Shown: positions 1,823 through 23,519, numbered from the stretch's first letter. The stretch: 64,000 nt of DNA from Candidatus Omnitrophota bacterium (GCA_043809145.1 JAZDED010000033.1:18196-82195); one strand, 5' to 3'. The notes: generated from the sequence alone by a model not told the origin. Made by a program: numbers and translations.

Positions 1823-2050
1823 ATGCCTAAGAATAAAGATATTTTAACAGCCAAGCAAGTCGCTGAATACCTGCATCTGCACCCATTGACTGTGCACCGT
1901 TATGCCCGTGAAGGTAAGATTCCAGCTTTTAAAATCGGGACAGATTGGAGGTTTTACAGTAAATACCTGGAAAGGTGGATAAAACAGAAACACGGCGCCT
2001 CTTCCGTCGACAAAAAAAGCAAAAATAACGAATTGTTTGATAAAAAATAA
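1823..2050 (+). CDS. excisionase-family (MerR-like) helix-turn-helix DNA-binding protein
   Basis: LTAKQVAEYLHLHPLTVHRYAREGKIPAFKIGTDWRF matches the excisionase-type HTH pattern. AGGAG lies upstream of the ATG. Confidence 0.6.
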   Translation: MPKNKDILTAKQVAEYLHLHPLTVHRYAREGKIPAFKIGTDWRFYSKYLERWIKQKHGASSVDKKSKNNELFDKK

Positions 2051-2054
2051 CCTT

Positions 2055-2666
2055 ATGTGGTATTGGATATTCAGCATCTTATTTTCCGTAATCGGTAAAA
2101 CCTTTTTTCAATTAAAAGTAGAGGGATTGAAAAATATTCCCTCGCGAACCAATTTTATTATAGTGGCTAACCACTTTAGTTTTCTCGACCCACTGGTAAT
2201 CATGGCAGCGGTGCGCAAGAAGATTTACTGCATTGCCCTAAGGGACATTTATAAAATCAAGTGGATGGGGTGGTTTCTAAAAATGGTAGAGACCTTTCCC
2301 TGCGGAACAGCATCATCGATTGCGGTAAAACTCTTATCAGAAAATAAAAATGTGGGCCTTTTTCCCGAAGGCGGAGTCAGCCGCGACGGAAAACTTAAAG
2401 AATTCAGGCGGGGCGCGGCACTCTTAGCTTATAAGACCGGCCGCCCAATAGTCCCTTGCGCCATATTGGGCGCATTTGAATCTCTTCCTTTTGGCAACAG
2501 CTTCCCTAAGATGCGCCCGATTAAATTAAAGATTGGCCGGCCTATCTATCTGACTAAAGAGTTTGATGAACGTATAGACGAGCTGTATTTGCAAGACGGG
2601 ATTTTTCGTATCCGAAATTCTATAAAGGAAATGTTAAAATGCCCGATAACGAATTTATCGAAATAG
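2055..2666 (+). CDS. 1-acyl-sn-glycerol-3-phosphate (PlsC/AGPAT-family) acyltransferase
   Basis: HX4D block VANHFSFLDP and FPEGGVSRDG block, with an N-terminal TM segment. ATG at 2055 is preferred over TTG at 2037. Confidence 0.8.
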   Translation: MWYWIFSILFSVIGKTFFQLKVEGLKNIPSRTNFIIVANHFSFLDPLVIMAAVRKKIYCIALRDIYKIKWMGWFLKMVETFPCGTASSIAVKLLSENKNVGLFPEGGVSRDGKLKEFRRGAALLAYKTGRPIVPCAILGAFESLPFGNSFPKMRPIKLKIGRPIYLTKEFDERIDELYLQDGIFRIRNSIKEMLKCPITNLSK

Positions 2667-4234
2667 AAATATCAAAAATTATCCAGGCTGAAAAATGGAA
2701 AATTATCCGCCTCCTGACAAAAGTCTGGGAATTTCCTTCGTATGTACCCTGCGTAAAAGAATCATCGGTAATCCTGAAAAAACGCCATGTAATGCAAACC
2801 CGATGGTCAATCAAGCTTGAGAATATACCGATTAGATGGATTGAAGAAGACACTCTTTCGCTTAAGGAGAATGCAATTTATTTCAAGGCTATCGAAGGTG
2901 ACCTTGAAGAATTCCGAGGTATCTGGACATTCGCAAACCTTCCCGAAGGAACACTTGTAAAATTACATATCAGCCTTAAAGTCGGCATCCCGGCAATCAA
3001 TGAATTTGCCAATGAGTATGTACGCAAACTAATAACGAAAAATTTTGAGGCTATTCTTGATGCTATTGAACGCAGGCTTATATCAACGCGTTACAGCAGT
3101 TACCGCCAGGGCAATATAGAAAAAATATCCGGATTCGGCATTATTATTCATTTTTATAATTACTGCCACCTGGAGAAGGGCCTGCTTAAACTTAATCCCG
3201 AACTTAAGTTACCTTCCCGGGCATTCCTACAACAGCTCTATCAAATCGCTCCTTCATTTAAGCTCTGCGATATTGATAGTTTTACCTCCAAGAATAAAAG
3301 TTCGGTAAAGGGCTCATTTGTAATAGCTACTTTTATCCCGGATATGCTGGAACAGGACCAATGGGCAGCTTATTCAAAAGTCATCAAAGCCTGCAAGATA
3401 GCAGAAAAAAAAGGAGTAGGTATTGTAACCCTGGCTAATTTTTCTTCTATGGTGCCGCAGAAAATCGACCATAAAATAAGCGATGATATCTATGTCCCGG
3501 TAACTACCGGGAATTCTTTTACCGTAGCCACAGTCATAGAAAGCATTCTTAAAGCCAATATGGCCCTACAGCTGAACCTTAGCCAATCGACCTTGACAAT
3601 TGTCGGAGGAACAGGAGATATCGGCAGCGCCTGCGCCAGAATACTGGCGGATAGAGTGAAAGAATTGATCATAACCGGAAGGAACAAGGAAAAGTTAAAG
3701 AACCTACATGATGAGTTAGCCCGTAAATATAAAACAAAGATTATTGCAACTACCGATAATCTTGCGGCAGTCAAAGCCGCTGACATAGTCATCGCCTGCG
3801 CAAACTCCAGCGCGTCATTTCTGAATATTGACTGGTTCAAACCCGCGAGCATAATCTGCGATGTAGGATATCCTAAAAACGTCTGCTATTATTCCAGCCG
3901 GGAGGATATACTGATATTTTCCGGAGGCTTGGTAAAATCCCCTACTCCTATTGATTTTCCTATTGACCTGGGGCTGCCGGCTCAGGATATAATCTATTCT
4001 TCTTATGCCGAAGGAATAATCCTGGCCCTGGAGAAAAGGTATGAAAATTATTCTCCCCAGGACAAAAATATTACTCCGCAAAAAGTTGAAGAAATAAGGC
4101 AACTCGGGGCTAAACATGGTTTTGAGCCGGCGGATTTTTACTGGTCAGGAAAACCCATAACCGAAGACCATATCCAGAAGGTGCGCAAAATTAACCAACT
4201 ACTCGGAAAAAATGCTGAATATAAAATAATATAA
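2639..4234 (+). CDS. SRPBCC (cyclase/dehydrase, START-like) domain fused to an acyl-ACP-reductase (cyanobacterial AAR)-like domain
   Basis: The N-terminal ~145 aa have an SRPBCC pattern (W..F.SYVP..., GDLEEFRGIWTF). The rest aligns by eye along its length with Synechococcus AAR: FGIIIHF, TFIPDML, TTGNSFT, TIVGGTGDIGSACARIL, GRNKEKLKNLHDEL, DVGYPKN, AKHGFEP. The AAR catalytic Cys position reads Ser (YSSYAEG). Confidence 0.65.
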   Translation: MPDNEFIEIEISKIIQAEKWKIIRLLTKVWEFPSYVPCVKESSVILKKRHVMQTRWSIKLENIPIRWIEEDTLSLKENAIYFKAIEGDLEEFRGIWTFANLPEGTLVKLHISLKVGIPAINEFANEYVRKLITKNFEAILDAIERRLISTRYSSYRQGNIEKISGFGIIIHFYNYCHLEKGLLKLNPELKLPSRAFLQQLYQIAPSFKLCDIDSFTSKNKSSVKGSFVIATFIPDMLEQDQWAAYSKVIKACKIAEKKGVGIVTLANFSSMVPQKIDHKISDDIYVPVTTGNSFTVATVIESILKANMALQLNLSQSTLTIVGGTGDIGSACARILADRVKELIITGRNKEKLKNLHDELARKYKTKIIATTDNLAAVKAADIVIACANSSASFLNIDWFKPASIICDVGYPKNVCYYSSREDILIFSGGLVKSPTPIDFPIDLGLPAQDIIYSSYAEGIILALEKRYENYSPQDKNITPQKVEEIRQLGAKHGFEPADFYWSGKPITEDHIQKVRKINQLLGKNAEYKII

Positions 4235-4235
4235 T

Positions 4236-5276
4236 ATGGCTAAATTCGCATTTATCGTAAATCCGGTTGAGCTCAACAATATCTATCAGCAATTTCCTTT
4301 CTCCCGGATACTTCCGAAAATTATCCTAAAAAAAGCGCTGCGCCTGCTTCCGCCGTTAAAAATAGCGCAAACAAGAAAATTTCTATCCCCTGCAGGAGAA
4401 GAAATACAAGGTTATTTTATAGCGCTACCTTTACTCTCAGAGCAGATTAGAGAGCTAGATGAAACCGACGCCGTTAAAAGACTGACCCTCTGTATAGACC
4501 TATGCCGCAGGCTTCAGGTGGATATTATTGGAGTAGGCGCAGCAGCCGCAACCATAGGCAATGGCCTGGAGGAGATTTCCAAGCAATGCGAGATACCATT
4601 GACTAATGGCTCCAGCCTCGGCTCAGCCGCGATACTGGAAGTAATAGAAAAAGCGGCAATCCTAAAACATATTGACCTTAAAAATACGAAACTTGCGATT
4701 ATCGGCGCCACTAATGCAGTCGGACAAAACTGCTCGCTTGAGTTTTCCAGACAGGTGGCTTCGCTGAGTTTAATCGCTAAAAATGAACAGCGTTTAATTG
4801 AGTTAAACAAATATCTGCTCGCGCAGCATATAACAGCGCAGATAGAGATAAACCCGGCTAACGCGCCTGAAGCAGTCAAATGCGCTGACATCGTAATATT
4901 CACCGCTTCCGCAGGTGAAATTAACTTTAAGACAACGGCTGACTCATTTAAAAAAGGGGCAATAGTCTGTGATATGCCTGCTTCGCGAAATATAACCCGA
5001 AAGATAGCTTTAACAAGAAAAGACATTCTGGTCATTGATACCGACGTAATTAAACCGCCGCAAACAATTGATTTAGGCTTCAGCCTGCCACAAATAGGAA
5101 AGGGGAACCTGTTTGCCTGTATAGCCGAAACAATACTGTTAACACTTGAGAAGAAATTTGACCGGAATTTCTCTGTTGGCTTTAAACCTGACCTGAATAA
5201 AACAAAAGAGATACTAACGATTGCTAAAAAACATGCCTATAAAATCGCGTTTACGAGCTTCAACCAGGAAATTTAA
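4236..5276 (+). CDS. acyl-ACP-reductase (AAR)-like protein, paralogue of the previous gene
   Basis: FAFIVNP, LAIIGATNAVGQNCS, AKNEQRLIELNKYL and LFACIAETILLTLEK (Cys retained at the AAR FACFAE position). The glycine motif is degenerate (GATNAVG). Confidence 0.65.
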   Translation: MAKFAFIVNPVELNNIYQQFPFSRILPKIILKKALRLLPPLKIAQTRKFLSPAGEEIQGYFIALPLLSEQIRELDETDAVKRLTLCIDLCRRLQVDIIGVGAAAATIGNGLEEISKQCEIPLTNGSSLGSAAILEVIEKAAILKHIDLKNTKLAIIGATNAVGQNCSLEFSRQVASLSLIAKNEQRLIELNKYLLAQHITAQIEINPANAPEAVKCADIVIFTASAGEINFKTTADSFKKGAIVCDMPASRNITRKIALTRKDILVIDTDVIKPPQTIDLGFSLPQIGKGNLFACIAETILLTLEKKFDRNFSVGFKPDLNKTKEILTIAKKHAYKIAFTSFNQEI

Positions 5277-5943
5277 ATCCAGGAACCTGCAGCAACCAAT
5301 AAAATCATTACTGTTATTACTGATAATAATATGGTTTACCGCAGCCGTATCAATATCATTTTCCGATCCAAAGAATACCTTGCTTACCCTTGTTTTGATT
5401 TTAATCGCCATAGAGCGCTTTATAGAAACCTTCTTCACCAGCAAACAAAATATTTTGAAAAAAAATACCAGGTTCGATTGGATTTTTATCTCATTGACCC
5501 TTGGCTATATAATGCTTATGTATGGATCACTTCTAGAGGCGTTTTTTAGCCCACATAAACTTTCTCCGCTTATTTCAATCCAAGGTATTATAGTCTACTG
5601 CCTGGGCTTAGGCCTGCGATGGTGGTCGATTAAATCCCTGGGTTTTGGCTGGAACCTCTTTATATCAAAAAAGTCCATAAAAAAAAGTGTACATTTAAAA
5701 CTGGTTAAAAACGGTCCGTATGCGCTGGTGCGCCACCCCATATATATAGGGACCATTTTTGAAATACTAAGCATCCCGATAATTGCCAATGCCTTATTCT
5801 CCCTGATCTTTGCCATTGCCACAATAATCCCGTTATTGATTATTCGAGCGTTATTGGAAGAAGAGATCTTAGTCCGTTATTTCAAAAACCGTTACGCTGA
5901 ATACAAAAAAAGAACAGGTTTTCTTATGCCTAAGCTTTTTTAA
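5233..5943 (+). CDS. membrane methyltransferase of the ICMT/PEMT family
   Basis: Multi-TM protein with LVKNGPYALVRHPIYIGTIFE and the C-terminal LLEEEILVRYFKNRYAEYKKRT signature. Confidence 0.65.
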   Translation: MPIKSRLRASTRKFKSRNLQQPIKSLLLLLIIIWFTAAVSISFSDPKNTLLTLVLILIAIERFIETFFTSKQNILKKNTRFDWIFISLTLGYIMLMYGSLLEAFFSPHKLSPLISIQGIIVYCLGLGLRWWSIKSLGFGWNLFISKKSIKKSVHLKLVKNGPYALVRHPIYIGTIFEILSIPIIANALFSLIFAIATIIPLLIIRALLEEEILVRYFKNRYAEYKKRTGFLMPKLF

Positions 5944-5954
5944 AAAATATACCT

Positions 5955-8126
5955 ATGAATATTATGATTTTTTACTCCTTAAGCGGGTTATTCAGCGCGG
6001 TCATCGCTTCCGTGTTCGGCATATTCGTATTCATCAAAAAACCGCAAGGAGCAGTTAACCGCACCTACGCGGCCTTAAGCTTCTGGATTGCCTTATGGGG
6101 ATACGCCTATTTTTATTTTCCCATATCGCAAAATGATAAGGATACCGTACTTTTATCCTTCCAAATCCTACAAATAGGCGCTATTTTTATCGGCCCGGCA
6201 TTCCTGCATTTTGTCCTATCCCTTTTAAATATGCATAAAGAAAAGAGAGGGTGGGTTAACCTAGCTTATATACTGGGCATTATCTTCGCAATTTCAGACT
6301 TCACTCCGTTTTTCATAAAAAGAATGGTTCCAAAATTTGAATTTAATTACTGGGCTGAACCGGGTTTCATGTATCACTTATATCTTGTATTCTGGTCCTG
6401 GTGCATTATCTATCCCTGGAGTTTAATACTGCGCAGATACAGCCAACTATCAGAATTTAAACAGAACCAGTTAAAATATGTATTTATCGCCTCAATAATA
6501 GGCTTTCTGGGCGGAGCTACCAATTATCCTTTCTGGTACAATATAGCTATACCTCCAATAGGCACATTCCTGGTAGGAGTGCATGTGCTTATCCTAGCCT
6601 ATGCCATCATTAAATACCGCCTGATGGATATAAAAGTCACGATTACCAGAGCAGGTGTTTTCCTGGCAGTATATACCCTGGTGCTGGGCGCGCCTTTTAT
6701 CCTCTCTACATCCGGAAAATTGCTCCTGATTGAAATCCTGGGAAGAAATTGGTGGTTGGGCCCATTGGTTCTTATGGCGCTCCTGGGCACAGGAGGCCCT
6801 TTTATATACATCTTCCTCAAGAACAGCGCTGAATCATTGATATTACGCGAACAAAAAAAATGCCAGAAGGTTCTTAAAAACGCAGCTGTCGACCTGACCC
6901 GTATACGCAATATACAAAAACTGCTGGATTTTGTCTGTCAAACTATAACCGAAGCCGTGAATATAAAGAACGCGGCAATTTATTGTTTTGACGCCAAACA
7001 AAACGCCTTCATTCTGCAATCAGGAATGGACTTAAGTAAAAAACAGCCCAAATCCATACCTTGCCATAATAAACTCATTGAACTGATGCAGAAGAATAGA
7101 GACTCGCTTATCCTGGAGGAAATTATATACAACTCTCAAGAAGATAATACCTCCTGCCTAAAAAGCCTGGAAATAGAGATGCTTCAATTAGGCGCAGCCA
7201 TGGCAGTACCCTGTTTTCTAGAAGACAAACTCCTGGATGTCATCATCCTGGGCGAAAAGAAATCTGCAAAGATGTATGGGCAGGAAGATGTGGAAAATTT
7301 CAATATTCTGGCTCCGGAAGTGGCGCTAGCAACGGAAAATGCCCAGCTCTACGAAAAAATAGAAGAGGAGGTCCGCGAAAAAACCAGCGAACTAGGTGAA
7401 ACCCAGAAGCAGCTGGTACAGGCAGAAAAATTAGCCACCATCGGAACTTTGGCCGGAGGAGTAGCGCATGAAATAAATAATCCTTTAACCGCTATACTAA
7501 CCAATGTCCAGATGCTATTAGATAGCGACGAGCCGGATAAGGAATGTTTAGAAATGATTGAAGACGCCACCAAACGCTGCAAAACAATAGTCCAGAAATT
7601 AATGGCCTACGCCAAGAAACCACATGCGAATAACGAAGAGCTCGTCATGCTGGATTTACGCCAGACTACCGAGAAAACAGTCTCTTTTCTCAAATTTCAG
7701 ATGGATCAGGAAAGTATCACGCTAAATATAAAAAAAACCAAAAACGAATGCCTGATTATGGGCAATCCCAATGAATTAGAACAAGTGATAACCAATATCC
7801 TGATTAACGCAAAAGATGCTATTAAACAAATCCATAAAAGTGGTATAATTAATGTATCAGTTTACGAGCACCAGTCTTGGTCTAAAATAGAAATACAAGA
7901 CGACGGAGTGGGAATAGCAAAAGAACTGCTCCCTAGAATATTCGACCCTTTTTTTACCACTAAAGATGTGGGAAAAGGCCTGGGGTTGGGATTATCTATC
8001 TGCCAATCGATTATAGAAAAACATAGCGGCAGGATATGCGTAGATTCCGAGATTAATAAAGGCGCGAGGTTCACTATATGGCTCCCCCTGACTACAAAGG
8101 TAGACAGGAGCAGGAAAACAGTCTAA
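5955..8126 (+). CDS. sensor histidine kinase: N-terminal 7TM sensor region, GAF-like domain, HisKA, HATPase (HK1)
   Basis: About 290 aa of TM helices. H-box GGVAHEINNPL, N-box ITNILINAKDA, DDGVGI and GKGLGLGLS. Confidence 0.85.
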   Translation: MNIMIFYSLSGLFSAVIASVFGIFVFIKKPQGAVNRTYAALSFWIALWGYAYFYFPISQNDKDTVLLSFQILQIGAIFIGPAFLHFVLSLLNMHKEKRGWVNLAYILGIIFAISDFTPFFIKRMVPKFEFNYWAEPGFMYHLYLVFWSWCIIYPWSLILRRYSQLSEFKQNQLKYVFIASIIGFLGGATNYPFWYNIAIPPIGTFLVGVHVLILAYAIIKYRLMDIKVTITRAGVFLAVYTLVLGAPFILSTSGKLLLIEILGRNWWLGPLVLMALLGTGGPFIYIFLKNSAESLILREQKKCQKVLKNAAVDLTRIRNIQKLLDFVCQTITEAVNIKNAAIYCFDAKQNAFILQSGMDLSKKQPKSIPCHNKLIELMQKNRDSLILEEIIYNSQEDNTSCLKSLEIEMLQLGAAMAVPCFLEDKLLDVIILGEKKSAKMYGQEDVENFNILAPEVALATENAQLYEKIEEEVREKTSELGETQKQLVQAEKLATIGTLAGGVAHEINNPLTAILTNVQMLLDSDEPDKECLEMIEDATKRCKTIVQKLMAYAKKPHANNEELVMLDLRQTTEKTVSFLKFQMDQESITLNIKKTKNECLIMGNPNELEQVITNILINAKDAIKQIHKSGIINVSVYEHQSWSKIEIQDDGVGIAKELLPRIFDPFFTTKDVGKGLGLGLSICQSIIEKHSGRICVDSEINKGARFTIWLPLTTKVDRSRKTV

Positions 8127-8141
8127 GCAGGAGGCAAAAAG

Positions 8142-8534
8142 ATGTCTAAGAAAATCCTCATAATCGACGATGAAACAATGATTACCAAAAGCCTGAAAAA
8201 ACTGCTCACTAAAGAAGGATACCTTCCGACAATCGTCTCAAGCGGAAACGAAGCGCTTGACCAGCTCAAAACCGATAATTTCGATCTTTTGGTATTGGAT
8301 ATGCGCATGCCCCAGATGGACGGTATTGAAACCATCCGGGCTATCCGCCAATACCTGGCAATAGAGCAAAAAGACCCCATGCCGGAAATAGTCATTACCG
8401 GATACGCAGACGAAAATAAATATAAGTGCGCCGTAGACCTTAAGGTGGCAGCCTACATTTACAAACCTTTTGACACTAAAGATTTTATGGCTACGGTAAA
8501 AAAAGCCCTGGGAGAAGATAATGCTGCAAAATAA
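8142..8534 (+). CDS. single-domain response regulator (REC)
   Basis: KILIIDDE, LLVLDMRMPQMDG and YIYKPF. GGAGG lies upstream. Confidence 0.85.
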   Translation: MSKKILIIDDETMITKSLKKLLTKEGYLPTIVSSGNEALDQLKTDNFDLLVLDMRMPQMDGIETIRAIRQYLAIEQKDPMPEIVITGYADENKYKCAVDLKVAAYIYKPFDTKDFMATVKKALGEDNAAK

Positions 8535-9264
8535 AACAGCGATTATTAGCGGAGCTTCGCGCGGAATAGGAAGAGCGATTGCTTTGGAGTTAGCTGCTAG
8601 CGGATGTAATATATCTTTCAGCTACCTAAAAAATGAAGCGGAAGCCAGAAAACTGGAAGAAGAAATCATAAAGATAAAAGTTAAGGCTATGGCTTTTCAG
8701 GCAGATATTAAAGATTATGAAGCGGTGTGCGCCTGGGTAACTAAAACCAAAGAAGTATTCGGTTCTCTGGATATAGCCATAAACAATGCCGGAGTAATTA
8801 AAGACAAAGCCCTAGTTTTTATGGAAAAAATAGACTGGCAGGAGGTCATGCAAACTAACCTAGACGGAGTATATAATCTAAGCCGGGCAGTGATCACCGG
8901 ATTCTTAAAACAAAAAAGCGGCAATATCATTAATATCAGCTCCGTAAGCGGGATTATCGGGCTGCCACGTCAAACTAATTATTCTGCCTCCAAGGCAGGA
9001 GTAATCGGTTTTACCAAAGCCCTAGCCAAAGAAGTTGCCGGATACAACATCCGAGTTAATGCAATAGCCGCGGGTTTTATCGAAACAGACATGACTAAAG
9101 AACTCAAGGATTCGCTGCGGGAAAAGATGCTTAAAAATATCCCCCTGGGCCGCTTTGGAAAAACTGAAGAAGTAGCTCTTGCAGTTAAATTCCTGGCCAG
9201 TGACGTATCGGAATATATTACCGGAGAAACCCTGGTCATTGACGGCGGATTATCAATGTTATGA
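8521..9264 (+). CDS. fabG: 3-oxoacyl-ACP reductase (SDR)
   Basis: SGASRGIGRAIA, NNAG, YSASKAG and GETLVIDGG. Confidence 0.85.
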   Translation: MLQNKTAIISGASRGIGRAIALELAASGCNISFSYLKNEAEARKLEEEIIKIKVKAMAFQADIKDYEAVCAWVTKTKEVFGSLDIAINNAGVIKDKALVFMEKIDWQEVMQTNLDGVYNLSRAVITGFLKQKSGNIINISSVSGIIGLPRQTNYSASKAGVIGFTKALAKEVAGYNIRVNAIAAGFIETDMTKELKDSLREKMLKNIPLGRFGKTEEVALAVKFLASDVSEYITGETLVIDGGLSML

Positions 9265-11822: not shown

Positions 11823-12074
11823 ATGCCCAAGACGGATTTTGAGCAGATAAAAAAAGAAGTCAAAAGAATGGTGGCTGAAATAACCGAGCTAACAGAAACT
11901 AAGCTCAAAGACGAAGCAAAGTTTGTGGATGACTTAGGGGTTGACAGCATGATGGCCCTGGAAATCGTAGCCAGCATTGAAAAGAAATACAAAGTTACAA
12001 TTCCTGAAACCGAAATTCCTAAGATGCGCTCGCTTAACGATATTTACGCGTTGCTTGAAAAGGAAATGAAATAG
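11823..12074 (+). CDS. acyl carrier protein
   Basis: 83 aa with DDLGVDSMMALEIV (phosphopantetheine Ser). Confidence 0.85.
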   Translation: MPKTDFEQIKKEVKRMVAEITELTETKLKDEAKFVDDLGVDSMMALEIVASIEKKYKVTIPETEIPKMRSLNDIYALLEKEMK

Positions 12075-12078
12075 GCCA

Positions 12079-15594: not shown

Positions 15595-15595
15595 A

Positions 15596-17032
15596 ATGCG
15601 TAATAGATATGATGCTATTATAATCGGAGCGGGAATTGGAGGCTTAGTAGCTGGATGCTACTTATCTAAACTCGGATCCAGGGTATTAATCATTGAACAA
15701 CAAAATAAACCAGGAGGATGCTGTACCTCATTTGAAAAAAACGGATATAAATTTGATGTAGCTGTTCACTATTTAGGAGGAATCAATAAAGGAATACTAG
15801 GAACTATATTTGATGAGTTGGGGTTAAGGGGTGATTTAAAATTCAATCAATTTGATCCTGTCGATAAAATCATAACACCAAAAATTATAACTTATATAAG
15901 AAACAAATCGACTTCTACAATTAAAGAGTTAAAGCACAACTTTTCCAAGGAAAGGAACAATATTGATAAATTCTTTTCTTTTGTATTACATGAAAATATT
16001 TATAATATGTATAAGAAGGTAGGTGCTTTAACAACAAAACAATTGCTTGATACTTTTTTTGAAGATAGATGTTTGAAAAGCACTTTAAATGTTACCTTGA
16101 GAAACATTGGATTATGTGCAAATGAATCATCTTCACTTGCATTCATTACTCTACTAAAAGATTACATATTAGATCCTGGATACTACCCTATTGGCGGCAT
16201 GCAAGAATTACCAAATAAATTGGCAGATAAATGCATAAACTTTGGAGGAAAGATTATCTTAAATCATTCCGTAAATAAAATTGTTCTTTCCAATAAAATG
16301 GTACAAGGAGTTAGGCTTGATGATGGGCAAGAATTCAAAACCAATACAGTTATCTCAAATATTAATGCAACAGATACATTCTTTAATCTATTAAAAATTA
16401 AAACGAGAGAACAAAACATAATAAAGAAACTTGTGCCCTCCCCATCTCTTTTTCTCGTATATGTCGGTCTCAATAATAAATTTAAGATTTCTTCAAAGGC
16501 GTCCTATAATATCTGGCCTTTTTTAAGCAATAATTTAAACAGATCTCCTGTTGTTTCAAAAAAAGAGATTGAAAGGGGAAAAGCATCAATAACAACAATA
16601 ACCTTTCCCTCCCAGCACGATAATTCAGTATCTAAAAAAACAGCAACTATTTTTTCTACTGTAGAGATTAGCAATAAAATATTCTGGGACAAATATAAAA
16701 ATATATATGCAAATAGTCTAATAAATAAAACAGAGAAAATAATTCCTTTTTTTAGTAATTTTGTTGATTTAAAGATAGTGGCAACACCATATACCTTTCA
16801 AAAATACACCTCAAATAAAAATGGCTCCGCATACGGCTGGGCTTCAAATGTTAAACAAATAAGCACAGCATTAATATCTCAGAAAACATCGATACCTGGA
16901 TTATTTCTAGCTGGACATTGGTCTATGGTCGGAACAGGACAAGGCGGGGTATCAAAATCAGCTTTTTCAGGAAGAAGAGTTGCTAGTTTAATATTAAACG
17001 AGAACAAATCTTTAATTAATGAATTTAAGTAA
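15596..17032 (+). CDS. CrtI/phytoene-desaturase-family NAD(P)/FAD oxidoreductase
   Basis: YDAIIIGAGIGGLVAGCYLSKLGSRVLIIEQQNKPGGCC, IGGMQELP and C-terminal GLFLAGHWSMVGTGQGGV. Confidence 0.75.
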   Translation: MRNRYDAIIIGAGIGGLVAGCYLSKLGSRVLIIEQQNKPGGCCTSFEKNGYKFDVAVHYLGGINKGILGTIFDELGLRGDLKFNQFDPVDKIITPKIITYIRNKSTSTIKELKHNFSKERNNIDKFFSFVLHENIYNMYKKVGALTTKQLLDTFFEDRCLKSTLNVTLRNIGLCANESSSLAFITLLKDYILDPGYYPIGGMQELPNKLADKCINFGGKIILNHSVNKIVLSNKMVQGVRLDDGQEFKTNTVISNINATDTFFNLLKIKTREQNIIKKLVPSPSLFLVYVGLNNKFKISSKASYNIWPFLSNNLNRSPVVSKKEIERGKASITTITFPSQHDNSVSKKTATIFSTVEISNKIFWDKYKNIYANSLINKTEKIIPFFSNFVDLKIVATPYTFQKYTSNKNGSAYGWASNVKQISTALISQKTSIPGLFLAGHWSMVGTGQGGVSKSAFSGRRVASLILNENKSLINEFK

Positions 17033-19237
17033 TAGTATGAATATTTTTGCTTTTTCATCAATTTTAATTATTGTATCTAATCTACTTTGCGCAATCTTTC
17101 TTCTAAGAATCCCTAAACAAAGATTGAATGCAATATGGGCTGTGGTATGTATAGCTGTTTCTATCTGGGGCGTTGGATCCTACAAGTTTTCAACTGCTCA
17201 AACTAAAGAAGTGGCGTTCTTTTGGTGGCAAATAGCACACATAGGCACAATATTCGTACCTGTATTTTACTATCATTTTGTACATTCATATCTTAAATTA
17301 AATAAAATATACCAAAAACACCTACTTATTGTAGTCTATCTATTAGGTGTATTCTTTCTTGTATGTACTTTTTATCCGAAAAAAATATTCATAGGTGAGC
17401 TTAGACTTATATTTAATCAATACTACTCACATGATTGGACAATAAAAAAAATATACTTTACTTACTTTTTTATATTAGTTTCTACTGGATACTTTTAATG
17501 TATTCTTTTTGCTTAATCTTAAATAGGTATCTTCATTCTAGTGGACTTATTAAAAATCAACTAAAATATTTCTTTGTTGCTATGATAGTTGGTTGGTTTG
17601 GTCCCCATGGAGACTATCTTCCAGTATTCGGAATATATATTTATCCATATTCAAATTTTCTTATGACCTTTTACACCATCATTATAGCCTATGCGATTTT
17701 TAAATACCGGCTTCTGGATGTAAGAGTTGCCATTACCCGCGCTGGCCTTTTTATTGCGGTTTATACTCTGGTTTTAGGCGTTCCATTTGCCATTGCCAAT
17801 CTTTACAAACAGACATTAGTAGATTGGTTAGGGGCAAACTGGTGGATGCTTCCTCTAAGCTTAATGGCAGGCTTAGCTACAATCGGGCCATTCATCTACA
17901 TCTATCTTGACCGCAAAGCAGAAGAGGCGCTTTTAAGAGAACAAAAGAGATACCAGAACACCTTAAAGCAGGCATCGGTAGGAATGACCCGCATTCGCAA
18001 TTTAAAAAGGCTCCTGGAATTAATCGCCCATATCGTAACCAAGACCGTCAAAATTTCCTACGTAGCTATCTATATCTACGATAAGGATAATGATGAGTAT
18101 GTCCTGCAGGTCAACCGAGACAAAGGGAGGATTCCCATTGCCCGATTAAGCTCATCCAATATCCTTTTAGATTTTCTATTTAGAAAGCGCGAACCAATTA
18201 TCTATGAAGAAATCAAACGCCTTAGCGAAGACTCTACAAACCCAATTTATAAAAGTATAGAAGAAAATATGGCGCAATTAACGGCTTCAGTTATTATTCC
18301 CAGCCTCTTAGAAAGAAAACCCATGGGCTTTATTGTCCTGGGAGACAAAATGTCAGGACAGATTTATACTCCGGATGATTTAAATGTCTTCCAGGTCTTA
18401 GCCAGCCAGGCAGCATTGGCTATTGAAAATGCTAAATTTATAGAAGAGGCTAAAGAAATGCAGGCGCAGATTGCCCACGCGGAAAAGATGGCTACCGTAG
18501 GAACCATGGCTGATGGATTATCGCACCAGATCAATAACCGTTTCTACGCCTTATCCCTAATCGCCGGAGACGCGCTAGATAGCTTAAAAATCACAGATAC
18601 CACTAAATGCACTCCCGAAGTCCAGCAGATGCTTCAGGATATTAACCACGCCTTAGAGCGCATTGAGGTAAATGTAATGAAGGGTGGAGAGGTTGTTAAA
18701 GGTATCTTAAAATACACCCGCAAGGAAAAAGAGGTCTTTGAATCCTTAATCCTGGATGAAATAATTGACGGCACCCTGGACATGGTACAGTATAAAGTAA
18801 AGCTTTCGGATATAGACATTATCCGTAGTTACCGCAAAGACATTCCCGGGATACAAGGTAACCTGGTCCAACTTCAGGAGGTCTTCTTTAATTTTATCGA
18901 TAACGCCAATGACGCGATGGCTGAACGCAAAACCACCCTTAAGGAGCCGGGATACCGCGGAAAGATTACTATCTCAGCGATAGATGAAAATAACTCCCTG
19001 CAAGTTATTATCCAGGATAACGGCATGGGTATTAAAAAGCAGGACACCAAGAAAATATTCACTCCTTTTTTTACCACCAAAATCTCCTCCCGCAAAGGCA
19101 CCGGGTTAGGGCTCTATGTGATTAATAAAATCATTACAGAAAACCATCACGGCAAGATACTCTTTGAATCCGAACATATGGCCGGAACGCGCTTTATCAT
19201 CGAGCTGCCGATAGCTCAACCGCCTGCAGCCCAATAG
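17019..19237 (+). pseudogene. sensor histidine kinase HK2 (paralogue of HK1) split by a frameshift in an A8 run. It may be a real pseudogene, a slippage switch or an assembly error.
   Basis: ORFs 17019-17498 and 17435-19237 together reconstruct the HK1 architecture. The frame change maps to AAAAAAAA at 17444-17451. Downstream motifs: AYAIFKYRLLDVRV, LSHQINNRF, FIDNANDAM, DNGMGI, GTGLGLYV. Confidence 0.7.
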
Positions 19238-19333
19238 CATTTTCTTTTCATGGAATAGCGAATATGGAATTACTTCTTGCAAAGTCGGAAATAGTTTAAT
19301 AGAATGTAAGCCTGTGTTAAAAGAGGAGGTAGA

Positions 19334-19699
19334 GTGCCAAAACTGATGATTGTAGATGATGAAGATGACGTGCGCGAGTTTGCCGCTAACTTCTTCCGCA
19401 AGCGCAAGATAGATGTAGTAACCGCGAAAAGCGGAGAAGACGCCCTGCGCAAGCTGGAAAAAGAAAAACCCACCCTGGTTCTTTTGGATATCCAGATGGC
19501 CGGGCTAGACGGTATCCAGACGTTGGAATCAATTAAGAAAAAAAATAAAGATATCAAGGTGGTCATGGTCACCGGGCGCAGCCCTTCGGAAAATAATACC
19601 CTGGAAAAATGCAAGAGCCTGGGGGCAATGGATTATATCCATAAGCCGCTGCGCCTTGATGAGCTGGAACGTGTAGTGCTATCCGCCTTAACTTCATAA
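19334..19699 (+). CDS. single-domain response regulator (REC)
   Basis: GTG start after AGGAGG. LMIVDDEDD, LVLLDIQMAGLDG and YIHKPL. Confidence 0.85.
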   Translation: MPKLMIVDDEDDVREFAANFFRKRKIDVVTAKSGEDALRKLEKEKPTLVLLDIQMAGLDGIQTLESIKKKNKDIKVVMVTGRSPSENNTLEKCKSLGAMDYIHKPLRLDELERVVLSALTS

Positions 19700-19706
19700 A
19701 TACAAT

Positions 19707-20873
19707 ATGGCCATAGATTATAAGAAAGAACTAGAAACCGCCGCCAAAAACATGATTCTGGTGCATGAGCCTGACCTGCTCATCAAGATGATTGTGCGCA
19801 CTATTGTCCAAAAAATCAAGGTCAGGCATGCTGGGATCCTTCTGCGCGACAAAGAAAAAAATAGCTATGTCCTTAACGTATCCGGAGGCCCCAAAGGAAT
19901 ACGCGTGCCTGCAGGATTTGCCCGTATGGATCCGGACAACCCCTTAATCCGCTTCTTTACCACTAAGAGACTCAGTTCTGTAATGAAAAACGGGGCATTC
20001 TTCTATTCTGACGGAGAAAAGATGATAAAAAACAGCAGGATCCCCGCAGAACTGCGCGAAATTATCCGACAATCACTTTACCAGATGGATATATTCGATA
20101 GCGTGGCCGGCGTGCCGAGTTATTTTCAAGATAGCCTTCTGGGAGTCTTGCTTCTGGGTAAGAAAGCCAACGGCCGAAACCTGCGCCACAGGGAGATAGA
20201 TTTTCTGGTAGCCCTGGCTTCAGACGTAGCCATGGCCATAAGAAACGCCCAGCTCTTTAAGGATTTAGAGCAAGAATTAATTAAGAAACATAATATGTTT
20301 ATTAATACTACCGTAGCCCTGGCTGCAGCGGTTGACGCTAAAGACCATTATACGCACGGACATATTAATCGGGTGACCAACATCTGTATGGAAATTGTCG
20401 CTAAACTAACCCAAAAAAACAAAGTAAAATTCAGCGACAAATTCATGGAGAATCTGCATATCGCAAGCCTCCTGCATGATATCGGAAAAATCGGTATTCC
20501 GGAGGCAATACTAAACAAGCCCGGCCCTCTGACCGACGAAGAAAGAAAGATAATTAATGGACACACCTTGATCGGAGTAAATATCCTGCAACCGATAAAA
20601 GAGCTTGAAACCGTAATACAGGGAGTAAAATACCACCATGAAAGATACGACGGCGCAGGTTATCCGGAAGGATTAAAAGGCGACGCCATTCCTATTCTGG
20701 CAGCAATCATCGCGGTTGCCGACAGCTATGACGCCATGACCTTGGACCGGCCCTACCGTAATGGCCTCTCCAAGAATGCGGCAATGGAGGAAATAGAAAC
20801 TCAGAGCGGCAAACAATTTCACCCCATGATAGTCCAGGCTTTTAGTGAACTATATAGAGAAGGTAAAATATAA
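19707..20873 (+). CDS. GAF-like domain + HD-GYP c-di-GMP phosphodiesterase
   Basis: HYTHGHINRV, LLHDIGKIGIP and HHERYDGAGYPEGL. Confidence 0.85.
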   Translation: MAIDYKKELETAAKNMILVHEPDLLIKMIVRTIVQKIKVRHAGILLRDKEKNSYVLNVSGGPKGIRVPAGFARMDPDNPLIRFFTTKRLSSVMKNGAFFYSDGEKMIKNSRIPAELREIIRQSLYQMDIFDSVAGVPSYFQDSLLGVLLLGKKANGRNLRHREIDFLVALASDVAMAIRNAQLFKDLEQELIKKHNMFINTTVALAAAVDAKDHYTHGHINRVTNICMEIVAKLTQKNKVKFSDKFMENLHIASLLHDIGKIGIPEAILNKPGPLTDEERKIINGHTLIGVNILQPIKELETVIQGVKYHHERYDGAGYPEGLKGDAIPILAAIIAVADSYDAMTLDRPYRNGLSKNAAMEEIETQSGKQFHPMIVQAFSELYREGKI

Positions 20874-20875
20874 CC

Positions 20876-21988
20876 ATGCCCAAGCGTGTTTTGCTCATGC
20901 ACATATCCAAGGTTTCAGGGCATCGCAGTGCAAGCATAGCCCTTGAAAAAACCCTGAAAATATTGGCTCCTGACACACAGGTGTTGAATATCAACGCCTT
21001 CCAATATACCAGCCCCATTGCCGAGAAGATTGCTAACCGCATTTATATGACGGTAATTAATAAAGCTCCGGGTATATGGGAATATATTTACGACAATCCG
21101 GCCTTTGCCAGAAGGCTGGAAACCTGGAAAAATCTGGCGCATAAGATAAATAACCCGAAGTTAAAAAAACTCTTTGATAGTTTCCGGCCTGATGTAGTAG
21201 CCTGCACCCAGGCATACCCTTGTGGAATGGTGGCGGATTTCAAAAAAACCTACCGCGTAGACACCCCCTTAATAGCAGTACTCACGGATTTCTCTCCGCA
21301 CCGCTACTGGATATACAACCAGGTTAATTATTTCATAACTCCATCGCACGAAATATCACAGCAATTTATGAACGCAGGCATACCGGAAAATAAATTAAAA
21401 TGTTTAGGAATACCATTTGAGCATAAATTTAACGAACCAGTTGATAAAGAAGAGGTACATAAAAAACTGGGTTTAAACTCAAAAGTGCCCACCATCTTAA
21501 TTATGGGTGGAAGCCACGGCTTGGGCCCCATAAAAAACATGCTGCAATCATTAGACAAGGCAAACCTTGAATTCCAAATGCTCATCGTAGCCGGCGCGAA
21601 CATGAAACTCTACCAATCCCTCTCCAGAGACATCCGGACATTTAAGAAAAAATGCGCACTTTTCGGCTATACCGACAAAGTTCACGAGTTAATGAGTATC
21701 TCAAGCCTAATTATCACCAAACCCGGAGGCATAACCACTTCGGAAGCGCTGGCCAAAGGGCTCCCCATGCTAATAGTAAAACCTCTGCCGGGCCAAGAAG
21801 CCAACAATACCGCATTTCTTACCCTAAAAAACTCAGCTATAGAAATTGAAGAAATTAAAAAGATAAGTTTGGTTATCGAAGAGCTGCTAAAAAATCCCAT
21901 TAAATTAAAACACTTAAAGGATGCGGCTCTAAATTTAAGTAAGCCTAATGCCAGCATGGATATTGCCAGGCTTATACTCGGCTTATAA
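20876..21988 (+). CDS. MGDG-synthase/UgtP-like (GT28) diacylglycerol glycosyltransferase
   Basis: RVLLMHISKVSGHRSASIAL at the N-terminus and C-terminal ITKPGGITTSEALAKGLPM. Starts 3 nt after the HD-GYP stop. Confidence 0.75.
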   Translation: MPKRVLLMHISKVSGHRSASIALEKTLKILAPDTQVLNINAFQYTSPIAEKIANRIYMTVINKAPGIWEYIYDNPAFARRLETWKNLAHKINNPKLKKLFDSFRPDVVACTQAYPCGMVADFKKTYRVDTPLIAVLTDFSPHRYWIYNQVNYFITPSHEISQQFMNAGIPENKLKCLGIPFEHKFNEPVDKEEVHKKLGLNSKVPTILIMGGSHGLGPIKNMLQSLDKANLEFQMLIVAGANMKLYQSLSRDIRTFKKKCALFGYTDKVHELMSISSLIITKPGGITTSEALAKGLPMLIVKPLPGQEANNTAFLTLKNSAIEIEEIKKISLVIEELLKNPIKLKHLKDAALNLSKPNASMDIARLILGL

Positions 21989-22005
21989 TTTACGCAACTC
22001 AGAAA

Positions 22006-22863
22006 ATGTTTAATTATATCCTCTACAGAATAGGACAATTTTTAGCCTTATCTCTGCCGATAAAAATAGCCTACGCGGTAGCCGTATTCTGCTCAGACCT
22101 GCACCAGATTTTTGCCGACAAGGACCGGGCAAATGTTACTGCTAATCTTAAGGTAATATTCCCGGATAAACCCTTAAACGAAATACGCAGGATAAGGCTT
22201 AAAATGGCCAGGAACTTCGCCAAATACCTGGTGGACTTTTTCCGTTTTTCTTTAATAGATAAAAAATATATGAGAAAAATGGTTAAATTGGAGAACACCC
22301 ACTACCTGGATGAGGCATTGGCCAGGAAGAAAGGGGTTATAGCCCTAAGCGCGCATTTGGGTAACTGGGAATTAGGCGGGGCAGCTGTGGCGCTCTTAGG
22401 TTACGATATCTGGGCAGTAGCCTTAACACACAAGCACAAGATAGTTAATGATTTCTTCAATAAACAGAGGGGAATTAAAGGGCTTAAAGTAATACCCCTG
22501 GGTAAAGCGGTAAGAAAATGCCTGGAGGTGTTTGGCCAAAACGGGATAATCGCGCTCGTAGGCGACCGTGATTTTTCGGAAAAAGGAGCGGTTATTGATT
22601 TATTCGGCAAGCCCGCTATCTTACCCGAAGGCCCGGCGGCATTCCACTTAAAGGTCGGAGCGCCCATAGTGCCTGTTTTTATGGTCCGCAACCCCGATGA
22701 CACCTTTACATTAATAATTGATAAGCCTATTGAATTCATACCCAGCGGAAATAAAAATAAAGACCTGCCGGAACTTATGTCAAAATACAACATCACCCTA
22801 GAACATTATATAAAGAAATACCCTGACCAGTGGTATATGTTCAGGAAATTCTGGATTAAATGA
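22006..22863 (+). CDS. LpxL/HtrB-family (lysophospholipid/lipid A-type) acyltransferase
   Basis: GVIALSAHLGNWELGG, LVGDRDFS and the C-terminal YPDQWYMFRKFW signature. Confidence 0.75.
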   Translation: MFNYILYRIGQFLALSLPIKIAYAVAVFCSDLHQIFADKDRANVTANLKVIFPDKPLNEIRRIRLKMARNFAKYLVDFFRFSLIDKKYMRKMVKLENTHYLDEALARKKGVIALSAHLGNWELGGAAVALLGYDIWAVALTHKHKIVNDFFNKQRGIKGLKVIPLGKAVRKCLEVFGQNGIIALVGDRDFSEKGAVIDLFGKPAILPEGPAAFHLKVGAPIVPVFMVRNPDDTFTLIIDKPIEFIPSGNKNKDLPELMSKYNITLEHYIKKYPDQWYMFRKFWIK

Positions 22864-23519
22864 AAACACTCATAATTATCCCCACCTTTAACGAATCCCG
22901 GTCAATAGTTAAACTTTTATTAAAAATTAAGGAGAGCGGGTTAGAAGTATTGGTTATTGATGACGGCTCCTCTGACAAGACTGCAGAGAAAGCTAAAGAG
23001 CAGGGGGTTATAGTCATAAAAAATGATACCAACCAAGGCAAAGGCGCAACGCTGAAAATTGGTTTTACCTATGCTTTAGAAAACGGTTATCAGGCCGTGA
23101 TTACCATGGACGGCGACGGACAACATTCTCCCGACGAGCTGCCTAGATTAATTCATGCAGGAGAAAATTCATCTTCCGGAATCATTGTAGGCAATCGTAT
23201 GCAGGCGGTAAAAAATATGCCCCTTATCCGCATCCTGACCAATAAATTCATGTCCTGGTTTATCTCCAGAAAAACCGGACAGTATATTGCTGACACGCAG
23301 TGCGGTTTACGGTTGATTAAAAGAGAGGTCCTGGAAAAAATCAGCCTGGAAACCAAAAGATTTGAAATCGAATCCGAATTATTAATCAAAGCTTCTTTAG
23401 CGGGTTTTAAAATAGAATCATTGCCTATTACCAGTATTTATTACGACGAAAAAAGCCAAATTAACCCTTTCACTGACACACTTAGATTTATAAAATTCAT
23501 CCTACATAGTGGAAATTAG
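22860..23519 (+). CDS. family 2 glycosyltransferase (polyprenyl-phosphate sugar synthase-like)
   Basis: IIIPTFNES, VLVIDDGSSDKT, MDGDGQHSP and QCGLRL. Has an ATGA overlap with the previous gene. Confidence 0.8.
   Translation: MKTLIIIPTFNESRSIVKLLLKIKESGLEVLVIDDGSSDKTAEKAKEQGVIVIKNDTNQGKGATLKIGFTYALENGYQAVITMDGDGQHSPDELPRLIHAGENSSSGIIVGNRMQAVKNMPLIRILTNKFMSWFISRKTGQYIADTQCGLRLIKREVLEKISLETKRFEIESELLIKASLAGFKIESLPITSIYYDEKSQINPFTDTLRFIKFILHSGN

Follow-up and report, generated by a model that had tools for sequence, protein, structure and literature searches.

The DNA analysed here, referred to as the window, is a 64-kb stretch from a metagenome-assembled genome (MAG) of Candidatus Omnitrophota. 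Its proteins bear the NCBI name 'Candidatus Omnitrophota bacterium', and an identical copy of one of them, the 531-aa protein encoded at 2639-4234, was found on contigs of MAGs GCA_043815385.1 and GCA_018825725.1. The subject of this study is a gene cluster between 1823 and 23519, at the centre of which lie the genes for a FabG reductase, a dead and a live ketosynthase (KS), an acyl carrier protein (ACP), and a FabZ dehydratase. Genes were called from a listing of open reading frames (ORFs) and from Pfam, NCBIfam, and PDB sequence searches, and the window was compared with fetched 21-kb loci, to which the labels of the form L0xx refer. Judged from sequence comparison, the core belongs to the same subfamily of KS/chain-length factor (CLF) pairs as Cluster I of the anammox bacteria, and the locus consists of two separable units, a KS module (unit B, 8.5-17 kb) seated inside an Omnitrophota-specific cassette (unit A, 1.8-8.5 kb and 17.0-22.9 kb). 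All genes described below for the cluster lie on the + strand.

The first gene of the core encodes FabG, a 3-oxoacyl-ACP reductase (8521-9264), which scored 299.5 bits against TIGR01830, above the cutoff of 297.75. It is followed by the gene of the dead, CLF-like KS (9302-10543; best PDB relative 9s5h_C, amxFabFmut, 3e-113), which stands directly upstream of the live KS gene (10527-11744) and overlaps it by 17 nt. The best PDB relative of the live KS was 9s5h_B (amxFabF2, 1.8e-137), and the next was Iga11 (6kxd, 5e-95). In the alignment, Tyr/Ala/Glu replace the Cys/His/His triad in the dead KS while the Lys is kept, and the live KS retains Cys/His/(Lys)/His. A dedicated ACP with a DSM motif (11823-12074; PF00550; best PDB matches 7qv0_D, 7auf_A, and 9s5i_E) and the FabZ dehydratase (12079-12522; best PDB relative 7qv0_A, amxFabZ, 3.5e-36) complete the set. 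The ACP matched three anammox ACPs at 1e-13 to 4e-12, a small margin over other ACPs (4e-10). The live KS fell below the fabF equivalog cutoff (416 vs 494 bits), the dead KS fell below all cutoffs, and the flexirubin FlxB model also stayed below its cutoff (252 vs 340 bits). A scan of 58 ORFs of the window, which comprise most ORFs of at least 110 aa and all ORFs inside the cluster interval, turned up no fabD, fabH, fabI, or acc. These observations bear out an earlier interpretation of this DNA made from its sequence alone (the sequence-only reading), in which the dead/live KS pair, the ACP, a ketoreductase (KR), and a dehydratase (DH) were taken as a KS/CLF system and not as an ordinary housekeeping type II fatty-acid synthase (FAS-II) operon.

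That reading was correct about the KS/CLF set, but it likened the set to type II polyketide synthases (PKSs) and aryl polyene (APE) clusters and touched on anammox ladderane genes only in passing, in connection with CrtI homologues, whereas both the best solved relatives and the residue signatures identified anammox Cluster I as the closest system. Cluster I (KustE3603-3608) comprises amxACP, amxFabZ, amxFabF2, amxFabFmut, a phytoene-dehydrogenase-like flavoprotein (PDH), and a B12 radical-SAM (radical S-adenosylmethionine) enzyme (PMC10139942), and according to published descriptions it is conserved among ladderane producers and confined to them (PMC10139942; 10.64898/2026.05.19.726425). Anammox proteins were the best solved relatives of both KSs, the ACP, and the FabZ of the window, the live KS being 52-56% identical to the Brocadiales KS as against 41-44% to canonical FabF, and the pairing of a dead KS upstream of a live KS was counted as common to the two systems. 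In amxFabZ, an Ile stands in place of a tunnel Gly, and the residues at the ACP-contact positions 96 and 115 are non-basic (PMC10139942). The window FabZ has Ile, Leu, and Met at these sites. Of the FabZs encoded in modules of Omnitrophota-like, Nitrospirota, and Planctomycetia loci, 34 of 38 had the tunnel Ile and the other four had Cys, and the two non-basic ACP-contact residues occurred in nearly all of them, while control FabZs carried Gly or Thr, then Lys/Arg, and then Arg or Phe. As for the dead KS, mutagenesis of Phe135 and Val139 of amxFabFmut shifts the chain-length preference of amxFabFhet (10.64898/2026.05.19.726425). Phe135 was found in 41/41 Omnitrophota/Nitrospirota dead KSs and position 139 was occupied by Val (36) or Thr (5, including the window), canonical FabFs having Ile or Val at positions 135/139. 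The Glu in place of the second catalytic His is also shared with the anammox protein.

Downstream of the core lies the gene of a CrtI/CrtISO-like flavoprotein (15596-17032; PF01593; TIGR02730 carotenoid isomerase 4.7e-38, below cutoff). It showed 33-34% identity and 239-251 bits to the gene product at the same position in Brocadiales, as compared with 63 bits to the PDB CrtI, and on these scores it is the counterpart of the anammox 'PDH', a further feature held in common with Cluster I. It has been reported that kuste3607 is not a phytoene desaturase (PMC4790861).

Bootstrapped neighbour-joining (NJ) trees with 100 replicates placed the anammox and Omnitrophota/Nitrospirota dead KSs in one clade (89/100) and the live KSs in another (93/100), both apart from canonical FabF and from the pairs of the Desulfobacterota type. 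Both clades also hold a Blastocatellia pair (L052) and a second Scalindua pair, and the live-KS clade in addition holds Iga11, which joins the anammox and Omnitrophota/Nitrospirota live KSs in an inner clade of 74/100. Before L052, the second Scalindua pair, and Iga11 were added, strict monophyly tests gave 2-49/100, and we therefore claim membership of the same subfamily and not a sister-group relationship. Thus, the separation of the KS pair from canonical FabF was upheld, whereas a strict sister relation to the anammox pair (49/100) was not.

The window also differs from Cluster I in several respects, one being its lack of the B12 radical-SAM gene. In Brocadiales, each of the six loci that were long enough has this gene after the PDH-like gene, with its Pfam architecture confirmed, whereas tblastn with the Brocadia enzyme as query found no homologue in the window or in 43 Omnitrophota-like/Nitrospirota loci, in agreement with the earlier statement that the cluster has no radical-SAM partner. 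A partner elsewhere in the window was also considered and rejected; the only radical-SAM gene found (27501-28559, 352 aa) lacks a B12 domain. It forms, with a DUF4416 gene, a segment at 27073-28559, 4 kb downstream of the cluster, and no link between this segment and the cluster was found. Further differences are that FabG is inside the module in the window, that the listed order is FabG-KSdead-KS-ACP-FabZ as against ACP-FabZ-KS-KSdead-PDH in Brocadiales, and that the catalytic Cys of the dead KS is replaced by Tyr/Phe in the Omnitrophota/Nitrospirota type as against Val/Thr/Glu in anammox bacteria. The window adds a thioester reductase, a nitroreductase-fold protein, a GMC flavoprotein, acyl-ACP reductase (AAR)-like proteins, and sensor kinases; its host belongs to Omnitrophota and not to Brocadiales, and the protein identity is only 33-56%. 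Separately, two Desulfobacterota MAGs (L060 and L070) carry a more distant KS/dead-KS/FabZ cluster of the Desulfotalea type with several B12 radical-SAM genes, and a radical-SAM association therefore exists outside anammox bacteria, in a different KS clade.

To survey its distribution, one genome per GTDB species was scanned with a dead-KS alignment as query, which gave 79 loci, and these were compared by tblastn and ORF-family clustering. The FabG-KSdead-KSlive-ACP-FabZ core was found in 26 Omnitrophota-like and 17 Nitrospirota/Thermodesulfovibrionales loci, several of the Nitrospirota ones on contigs of 0.15-1.6 Mb. Among the matches listed, dead-KS identity was 59-75% across 119 other clusters, of which the named ones were, with two exceptions, Omnitrophota. 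Neighbouring genes were counted only in loci with >9 kb of flank (17 Omnitrophota-like, 11 Nitrospirota, and 5 Brocadiales). In this order of groups, a CrtI-like gene followed the core in 10/17, 7/11, and 5/5 loci, and a membrane sensor kinase followed it in 8/17, 8/11, and 0/5. Near the core, a thioester reductase was present in 5/17, 1/11, and 0/5 loci, and a nitroreductase-fold protein and an SRPBCC-AAR-like protein were each present in 4/17, 0/11, and 0/5. FabG occurred in 14/17 of the Omnitrophota-like and 7/11 of the Nitrospirota long loci. Those Omnitrophota kinases that were scanned had a HisKA_7TM sensor domain, and the single scanned Nitrospirota kinase (L019) had MASE8-PAS. The presence of membrane sensor kinases, receivers, and HD-GYP proteins beside a lipid module in two phyla suggests an unstudied membrane-homeostasis circuit. 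As side observations, SAM-dependent methyltransferases, one of them CMAS-like, were encoded in or beside the module in L019, L036, L081, L018, and L068 (Nitrospirota and some Omnitrophota), and a third, divergent KS-like gene was seen in L004, L009, L029, and L032. Genes first taken for plsX/fabH/fabD upstream of the module in L014 and L016 were rejected, as Pfam assigned them to an unrelated rib operon (riboflavin and NusB genes).

The sequence-only reading had treated the region as one ~21-kb supercluster. Comparison with related loci resolved it instead into a conserved core and a cassette that occurs alone. In L082 and L083, which were retrieved through two distant homologues of the SRPBCC-AAR protein described below, unit A was found without the KS module, in the order HTH_17-PlsC-SRPBCC-AAR-(SDR)-7TM kinase-receiver-methyltransferase-7TM(GAF) kinase (SDR, short-chain dehydrogenase/reductase; 7TM, seven-transmembrane), followed in L082 by a receiver/HD-GYP protein and an MGDG-synthase-like GT28 glycosyltransferase. 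The combined architecture is itself conserved in relatives. The whole of it was found in L084 (GCA_041643395.1), where most proteins were 68-79% identical, the GMC and CrtI-like genes were present, FabG was absent, and a toxin-antitoxin pair was inserted, and also in L003, where most genes were 53-74% identical, the GMC and CrtI-like genes were absent, and the GT28 and LpxL genes were present. A second, paralogous KS/CLF module (L085) lies on another contig of the MAG that contains L084. In L085, the genes directly after FabZ encode an AAR-type pair, a nitroreductase-fold protein, and a CrtI-like protein, together with a kinase, a receiver, and an HD-GYP protein; L034 and L044 share this layout. 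The release genes therefore differ between the paralogous modules, with a thioester reductase and GMC protein in L084 and an AAR-type pair in L085. An AbiEii toxin gene lies beside each of these two modules.

Unit A begins with a small HTH_17 DNA-binding protein (1823-2050; PF12728), the gene of which is directly upstream of PlsC in L001, L002, L082, L083, and L084. The PlsC-type (AGPAT) acyltransferase (2037-2666, probable start 2055; PF01553, 92.5 bits) was 75% identical in L084 and 58% identical in L003, and its gene adjoins the SRPBCC-AAR gene in L082 and L083 too. The latter gene (2639-4234) encodes a fusion of an SRPBCC lipid-binding domain with an AAR-like domain (PF03364 and PF01488; TIGR04058 1e-44, below cutoff; PDB 6jzz 3e-32). 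Among the matches listed, this protein was 57-68% identical across >100 clusters, and all named members were Omnitrophota. Its NADP motif is intact, but Ser455 occupies the family Cys site (YGCFAE to YSSYAE), as it does in the nearest relatives, whereas the family consensus at this site is Cys (107/120); we take the site to be that of the presumed nucleophile Cys294 of the Synechococcus AAR. The next gene (4236-5276) encodes a second protein resembling AAR and the PigE N-terminal region, AAR2 (NCBIfam PigE 4.5e-31 and AAR 1e-20; PDB 4ppm 5e-12), in which the Cys is kept (LFACIAE, residue 298) but the NADP motif is degenerate. Both AAR-like proteins of L003 lack the Cys and have Ala and Pro at the site. 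The fusion protein thus shares the AAR fold and the NADP motif with the AAR of the cyanobacterial AAR/aldehyde-deformylating oxygenase system and with the PigE N-terminal region, but it differs in its fusion to SRPBCC, in its Ser at the site of the presumed nucleophile Cys, and in the TIGR04058 scores of the window (151 and 74 bits vs a cutoff of 450). No aldehyde-deformylating oxygenase was found in the window, where the only ferritin-like match was a rubrerythrin (29004-29582).

Next in the cassette is a lineage-specific ICMT/PEMT-type membrane methyltransferase (5455-5943; PF04140/PF04191). Its start is likely 5455 (162 aa, as called in L001) and not the TTG at 5221, which leaves a 179-nt gap after AAR2 and no overlap; among related loci, the gene was missing from L084 and L003, with a weak 32% match in L068 only. 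A 7TM-GAF-HisKA histidine kinase, HK1 (5955-8126; PF16927, PF13492, PF00512, and PF02518), keeps its position in L003, L084, L082, and L083. It is followed by a stand-alone receiver, RR1 (8142-8534; PF00072), the gene of which overlaps the fabG start by 14 nt; a receiver gene likewise immediately precedes FabG in L003, L004, and L079, and in L006 and L084 one immediately precedes the dead KS gene.

On the other side of the module, unit A continues with a second 7TM-GAF histidine kinase, HK2 (17019-19237), in which two ORFs match the two halves of PF16927. A 1-nt frameshift within an A8 homopolymer (17444-17451) interrupts the gene, and the addition of one A gives a 739-aa ORF matching the intact kinase of L084; the frameshift may have arisen in assembly or may be genuine, possibly with phase variation. 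It is followed by a second stand-alone receiver, RR2 (19334-19699; PF00072; 64% identical in L003), and by an HD-GYP protein, a putative cyclic di-GMP (c-di-GMP) phosphodiesterase (19707-20873; PF13487 and PF01966), which also comes after a kinase and a receiver in L003, L085, and L082. A UgtP/MGDG-synthase-like GT28 enzyme (20876-21988; PF06925 and PF04101; NF010135 diglucosyl-diacylglycerol synthase 6e-68, below cutoff) has counterparts in L003 (56%) and L082, and an LpxL/PIM-type lipid acyltransferase (22006-22863; PF03279, 152.6 bits) was 56% identical in L003. The last gene encodes a GT2 polyprenyl-phosphate-sugar-type transferase (22860-23519; PF00535), which overlaps the LpxL stop by 4 nt and whose membership of the cluster is uncertain; it had no syntenic counterpart in the fetched loci, few of which reach that far past the core. 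Consequently, of the PlsC, LpxL, GT28, and GT2 proteins proposed earlier for lipid attachment, the first three were supported by synteny and GT2 was not. The signalling genes together occupy ~6.9 kb of the 21.5-kb interval, about a third. Profile-based domain assignment thus confirmed every enzyme family named in the sequence-only reading, the gene inventory of which was sound for the enzymes but had missed the two 7TM kinases, the two receivers, the HD-GYP protein, and the HTH_17 protein.

Between FabZ and the CrtI-like gene, three tailoring or release candidates are encoded. A thioester-reductase-type SDR with an NAD_binding_4 domain (12650-13738; PF07993, 169.6 bits; TIGR01746 1.6e-42; MxaA reductase domain 3e-22) has the MxaA and AusA terminal reductase domains as its nearest solved relatives in the PDB. 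Together with the AAR-like proteins, it provides the reductive-release candidates expected from the earlier interpretation. It is followed by a short, lineage-specific, alcohol-oxidase-like GMC flavoprotein (13735-15009; PF00732 and PF05199; PDB alcohol oxidase 8rpf 2e-12), which among the fetched loci had a counterpart only in L084 (67% identity), and by a nitroreductase-fold flavoprotein (15010-15594; PF00881), which matched the FbiB C-terminal and BluB models below cutoff. For the GMC and nitroreductase-fold proteins, the PDB searches yielded nothing closer than generic relatives. Possible activities of the nitroreductase-fold and CrtISO-like flavoproteins are the reduction, isomerisation, or desaturation of double bonds.

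Based on these results, we propose, with slightly better than even confidence, that the locus encodes a dedicated, self-priming KS/CLF synthase with reductive release and glycerolipid/glycolipid assembly under membrane-sensor control, and that its product is not a ladderane. The amxFabFhet heterodimer decarboxylates malonyl-ACP and prefers C6/C8 probes (10.64898/2026.05.19.726425), and amxFabZ prefers chains up to C8 (PMC10139942). By analogy with these anammox proteins, the KS heterodimer would prime itself by decarboxylation of malonyl-ACP, and the KS and FabZ tunnels would favour short intermediates of ~C6-C8. Since the determinants are kept in the window, the chain that the module is proposed to build on its own ACP is short and/or unsaturated. 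The cluster has no enoyl reductase (ER), which likewise implies a short and/or unsaturated chain unless an outside enzyme or one of the flavoproteins reduces it. From the chemistry of their families, release of the chain in the form of an aldehyde or alcohol may be due to the NAD_binding_4 reductase and the AAR-like proteins, with the GMC protein interconverting alcohol and aldehyde, and the UgtP-like GT28 enzyme and the two acyltransferases, PlsC-type and LpxL-type, may assemble a glycerolipid or glycolipid. Unit A would thus attach acyl or alkyl chains to a glycerol/glycolipid scaffold and couple this to membrane-embedded sensing. The end product would be an undescribed membrane lipid or glycolipid, possibly ether-linked, and the cluster probably makes a lipid different from ladderane. 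Homologues of ElbD, an ether-lipid reductase/acyltransferase, occur in 93/267 Black Sea Omnitrophota MAGs (PMC11868695), which is consistent with an ether-linked product but does not prove it. Like the myxobacterial ElbD (ligase-ACP-reductase-AGPAT), the window encodes an NAD_binding_4 thioester reductase and a PlsC/AGPAT acyltransferase, but these are separate proteins and not one multidomain enzyme, and there is no AMP-ligase domain. Our literature search found no pairing of an acyl-ACP reductase with bacterial ether-lipid synthesis. PabB (649-1761), which had been mentioned as a possible source of a chorismate-derived starter, was rejected in that role, as no counterpart was present in any related locus.

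Several points weigh against this proposal. The evidence comes from sequence comparison, and the chain-length and priming behaviour is borrowed from anammox homologues with an identity of only 44-56%. The strict clade of anammox and Omnitrophota/Nitrospirota live KSs reached only 49/100, in trees built by NJ rather than by maximum likelihood. The thioester reductase, nitroreductase, and AAR genes lie beside the core in a minority of loci only, the GMC, ICMT, and GT2 genes are not conserved, and the L084 module has no FabG. The reductase activity of the AAR-like proteins is doubtful in the window lineage because of the Ser site, the degenerate NADP motif, and the Ala and Pro of L003. Finally, the KEGG Orthology (KO) lists of two Omnitrophota genomes contain neither FabH nor a known enoyl reductase, which leaves room for a housekeeping role.

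Such a role is the first alternative to be weighed. The module would then be the housekeeping FAS of Omnitrophota, with the heterodimer replacing FabH for priming and an unconventional flavoprotein, of the nitroreductase-fold or CrtI-like kind, or an unknown enzyme replacing FabI/K/L/V. The phylum-wide conservation of the dead KS described above fits this explanation, as does the ability of amxFabFhet to prime via malonyl-ACP decarboxylation. The KO lists of Omnitrophota genomes 58 and 231 hold fabD, fabG, fabZ, fabF, plsX/Y/C, and acc (Seymour et al. 2023, PMC10066038 supplement 6), and fabH and all four enoyl-reductase KOs are missing from them (PMC10066038). On the other hand, that table records presence only, for two or three MAGs, and it includes an LpxC-FabZ fusion (K16363) for genome 58 and fabH for genome 221 (PMC10066038). 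One MAG (GCA_041643395.1) has two paralogous modules with different release genes, and one of the two (L084) is without FabG, so that another FabG must exist. The module coexists with canonical FAS-II in Nitrospirota (L081, with plsX-fabH adjacent) and in anammox bacteria, the FabZ and KS tunnels carry constrictions of the short-chain kind, and the linked reductive-release enzymes are not needed for phospholipid synthesis. The window does resemble canonical FAS-II in that its FabG passes the equivalog cutoff and its KS, ACP, and FabZ are homologous to FabF, AcpP, and FabZ, but it lacks fabD/fabH/fabI/acc, both KSs are below the fabF cutoff, and the tunnel and ACP-contact residues of FabZ are non-canonical. 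No canonical FAS genes were seen in the fetched Omnitrophota sequence, a sample far too small to weigh. Taken together, a housekeeping function seems unlikely to us. A more far-reaching version, which we regard as quite improbable, holds that the module is the only elongating FAS in many Omnitrophota, self-priming in place of FabH and with a nitroreductase-fold or CrtI-fold flavoprotein or another, unknown enzyme as ER, and that anammox Cluster I is a derived copy of this ancient alternative FAS of three phyla with the B12 radical-SAM enzyme added for ladderane formation. The absence of an ER could also point to a highly reducing type II PKS forming a secreted or pigment polyene, ishigamide-like or APE-like, instead of a membrane lipid; KS/CLF, KR, and DH without ER is the logic of polyene-forming type II systems, and the thioester reductase could release a polyenal. 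The ishigamide system (Iga10-16) likewise has a KS/CLF pair (Iga11-Iga12), a KR, and a FabZ-type DH but no ER, and Iga11 was the second-best solved relative of the live KS and fell inside its 93/100 and 74/100 clades. However, Pfam found no starter adenylation enzyme, thioesterase, LolA/MMPL, amide synthase, or cyclase in the ORFs at 1-27 kb, and the absence of the APE starter enzyme, thioesterase, and export genes, already pointed out from the sequence, is thereby substantiated. Relative to ishigamide, the window thus lacks amide-forming and starter enzymes, is linked to lipid acyltransferases and glycosyltransferases (PlsC, the LpxL-like acyltransferase, and the UgtP-like glycolipid synthase), and has a FabZ tunnel constricted in the anammox manner. 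APE clusters carry a trio of PlsC, LpxL-like, and GT2 genes. The window shares with APE and flexirubin clusters the KS pair, ACP, KR, and DH and the nearby PlsC-like, LpxL-like, and GT2 genes, but it differs from them in lacking the adenylating starter enzyme, thioesterase, LolA, and MMPL and in falling below the FlxB cutoff, and its PlsC, LpxL, and GT2 genes are in a separate cassette or not conserved; the direct KS comparison covered anammox, canonical FabF, Desulfobacterota-type, and ishigamide sequences. Aromatic type II PKSs have an active-site Gln in the CLF where the dead KS of the window has Tyr; actinorhodin KS/CLF (1tqy) was among the distant matches, and the only SRPBCC domain of the window is fused to an AAR-like reductase. 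Conservation over much of a small-genome phylum would, moreover, be unusual for a dispensable secondary metabolite, and we consider a polyene product rather unlikely.

The two remaining alternatives concern the extent of the cluster and the identity of its lipid. It is very unlikely, in our assessment, that the functional unit is confined to the core (8.5-17 kb) and that the PlsC/AAR, kinase, GT28, LpxL, and GT2 genes are chance neighbours in a co-directional block. In favour of this view, the genes between 30 and 35,230 lie on the + strand regardless of function, the outer genes are common only to L003 and L084, and unit A was found without unit B. Nevertheless, the junctions PlsC-AAR-...-HK-RR-module-...-HK-RR-HD-GYP-GT28 are found again in L003 and L084 although the proteins have diverged by 20-45%, AAR-type genes lie within the module operon in L034, L044, and L085, and the receiver overlaps fabG by 14 nt. 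That the cluster makes ladderane lipids in Omnitrophota is extremely improbable, even though counterparts of five of the six Cluster I gene families are present and antiSMASH labels such clusters 'ladderane'. The B12 radical-SAM gene, present in all six of the long-enough Brocadiales loci, is missing from the window and the 43 loci, the sole radical-SAM gene of the window has no B12 domain and lies outside the cluster, and ladderane lipids have been found only in anammox bacteria (PMC10139942).

These findings bear on the interpretation of Cluster I. Structural work on amxACP, amxFabZ, and amxFabFhet treats the exclusivity of Cluster I as an argument for its ladderane role. Five of the six Cluster I families, together with residues regarded as 'anammox-specific', are common to many Omnitrophota/Nitrospirota without a B12 radical-SAM gene, and the KS/CLF-ACP-FabZ-PDH set therefore does not suffice to make ladderanes. 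The step in Cluster I most likely to be specific to ladderanes is the one assigned to the radical-SAM enzyme, and ladderane research gains non-anammox homologues. The statement in the sequence-only reading that the gene combination matched no described pathway was overstated, since a study of the Cariaco Basin had already reported antiSMASH 'ladderane' clusters in Omnitrophota and other phyla, leaving their function open (bioRxiv 10.1101/2022.12.20.521206), and partial synteny of the anammox clusters with Desulfotalea had been noted previously (Rattray et al. 2009). In the papers covered by our literature search, we found no residue-level description of the amxFabZ/amxFabFmut signatures beyond anammox bacteria, and none of the B12 radical-SAM gene being consistently missing from such non-anammox loci, of the two-unit anatomy, or of the link to sensor kinases; the Omnitrophota papers searched were silent on lipids. 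These bacteria are uncultured, very small, and possibly host-dependent, and the locus is a candidate for a distinctive lipid and a possible biomarker.

The segment at 15010-17500, which covers the nitroreductase gene, the CrtI-like gene, and the N-terminus of the kinase, is AT-rich (GC 0.28-0.31 vs 0.41-0.45; GC3 0.17-0.24) and more diverged from L084 than the remainder (45-53% vs 68-79% identity). The AT dip and the raised divergence recur at the same place in L084 (~17-20 kb), L085 (~10-11 kb), and L003 (~14-16 kb). Because of this recurrence, the segment is not a private recent transfer, and recent horizontal transfer as the sole cause of the AT-rich 15.0-17.5 kb was rejected.

The co-directional arrangement at 2.0-23.5 kb was correctly described earlier as tight and on one strand, but it is not specific to the cluster. 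Tightly packed + strand genes continue uninterrupted from 30 to 35,230 with unrelated housekeeping genes among them, and strand and spacing therefore do not delimit the cluster; outside it, the rest of the window consists of housekeeping genes. Promoter-like and terminator-like sites occurred at chance level in the window, and an Rfam scan gave nothing above chance. The orientation flips at ~35.2-36.4 kb, from all + (30-35,230) to all - (36,372 onward), and the GC skew changes there from ~0 to ~-0.15. A gene for a corrinoid adenosyltransferase, CobA/BtuR (24690-25229), lies 1.2 kb downstream of the cluster and is probably unrelated to it. In addition, c-di-GMP-related genes are dense in the window (26172-27061, 50281-51666, and 19707-20873), where they encode two stand-alone PilZ proteins, a PilZ-T2SSE ATPase fusion, and the HD-GYP protein of the cluster.

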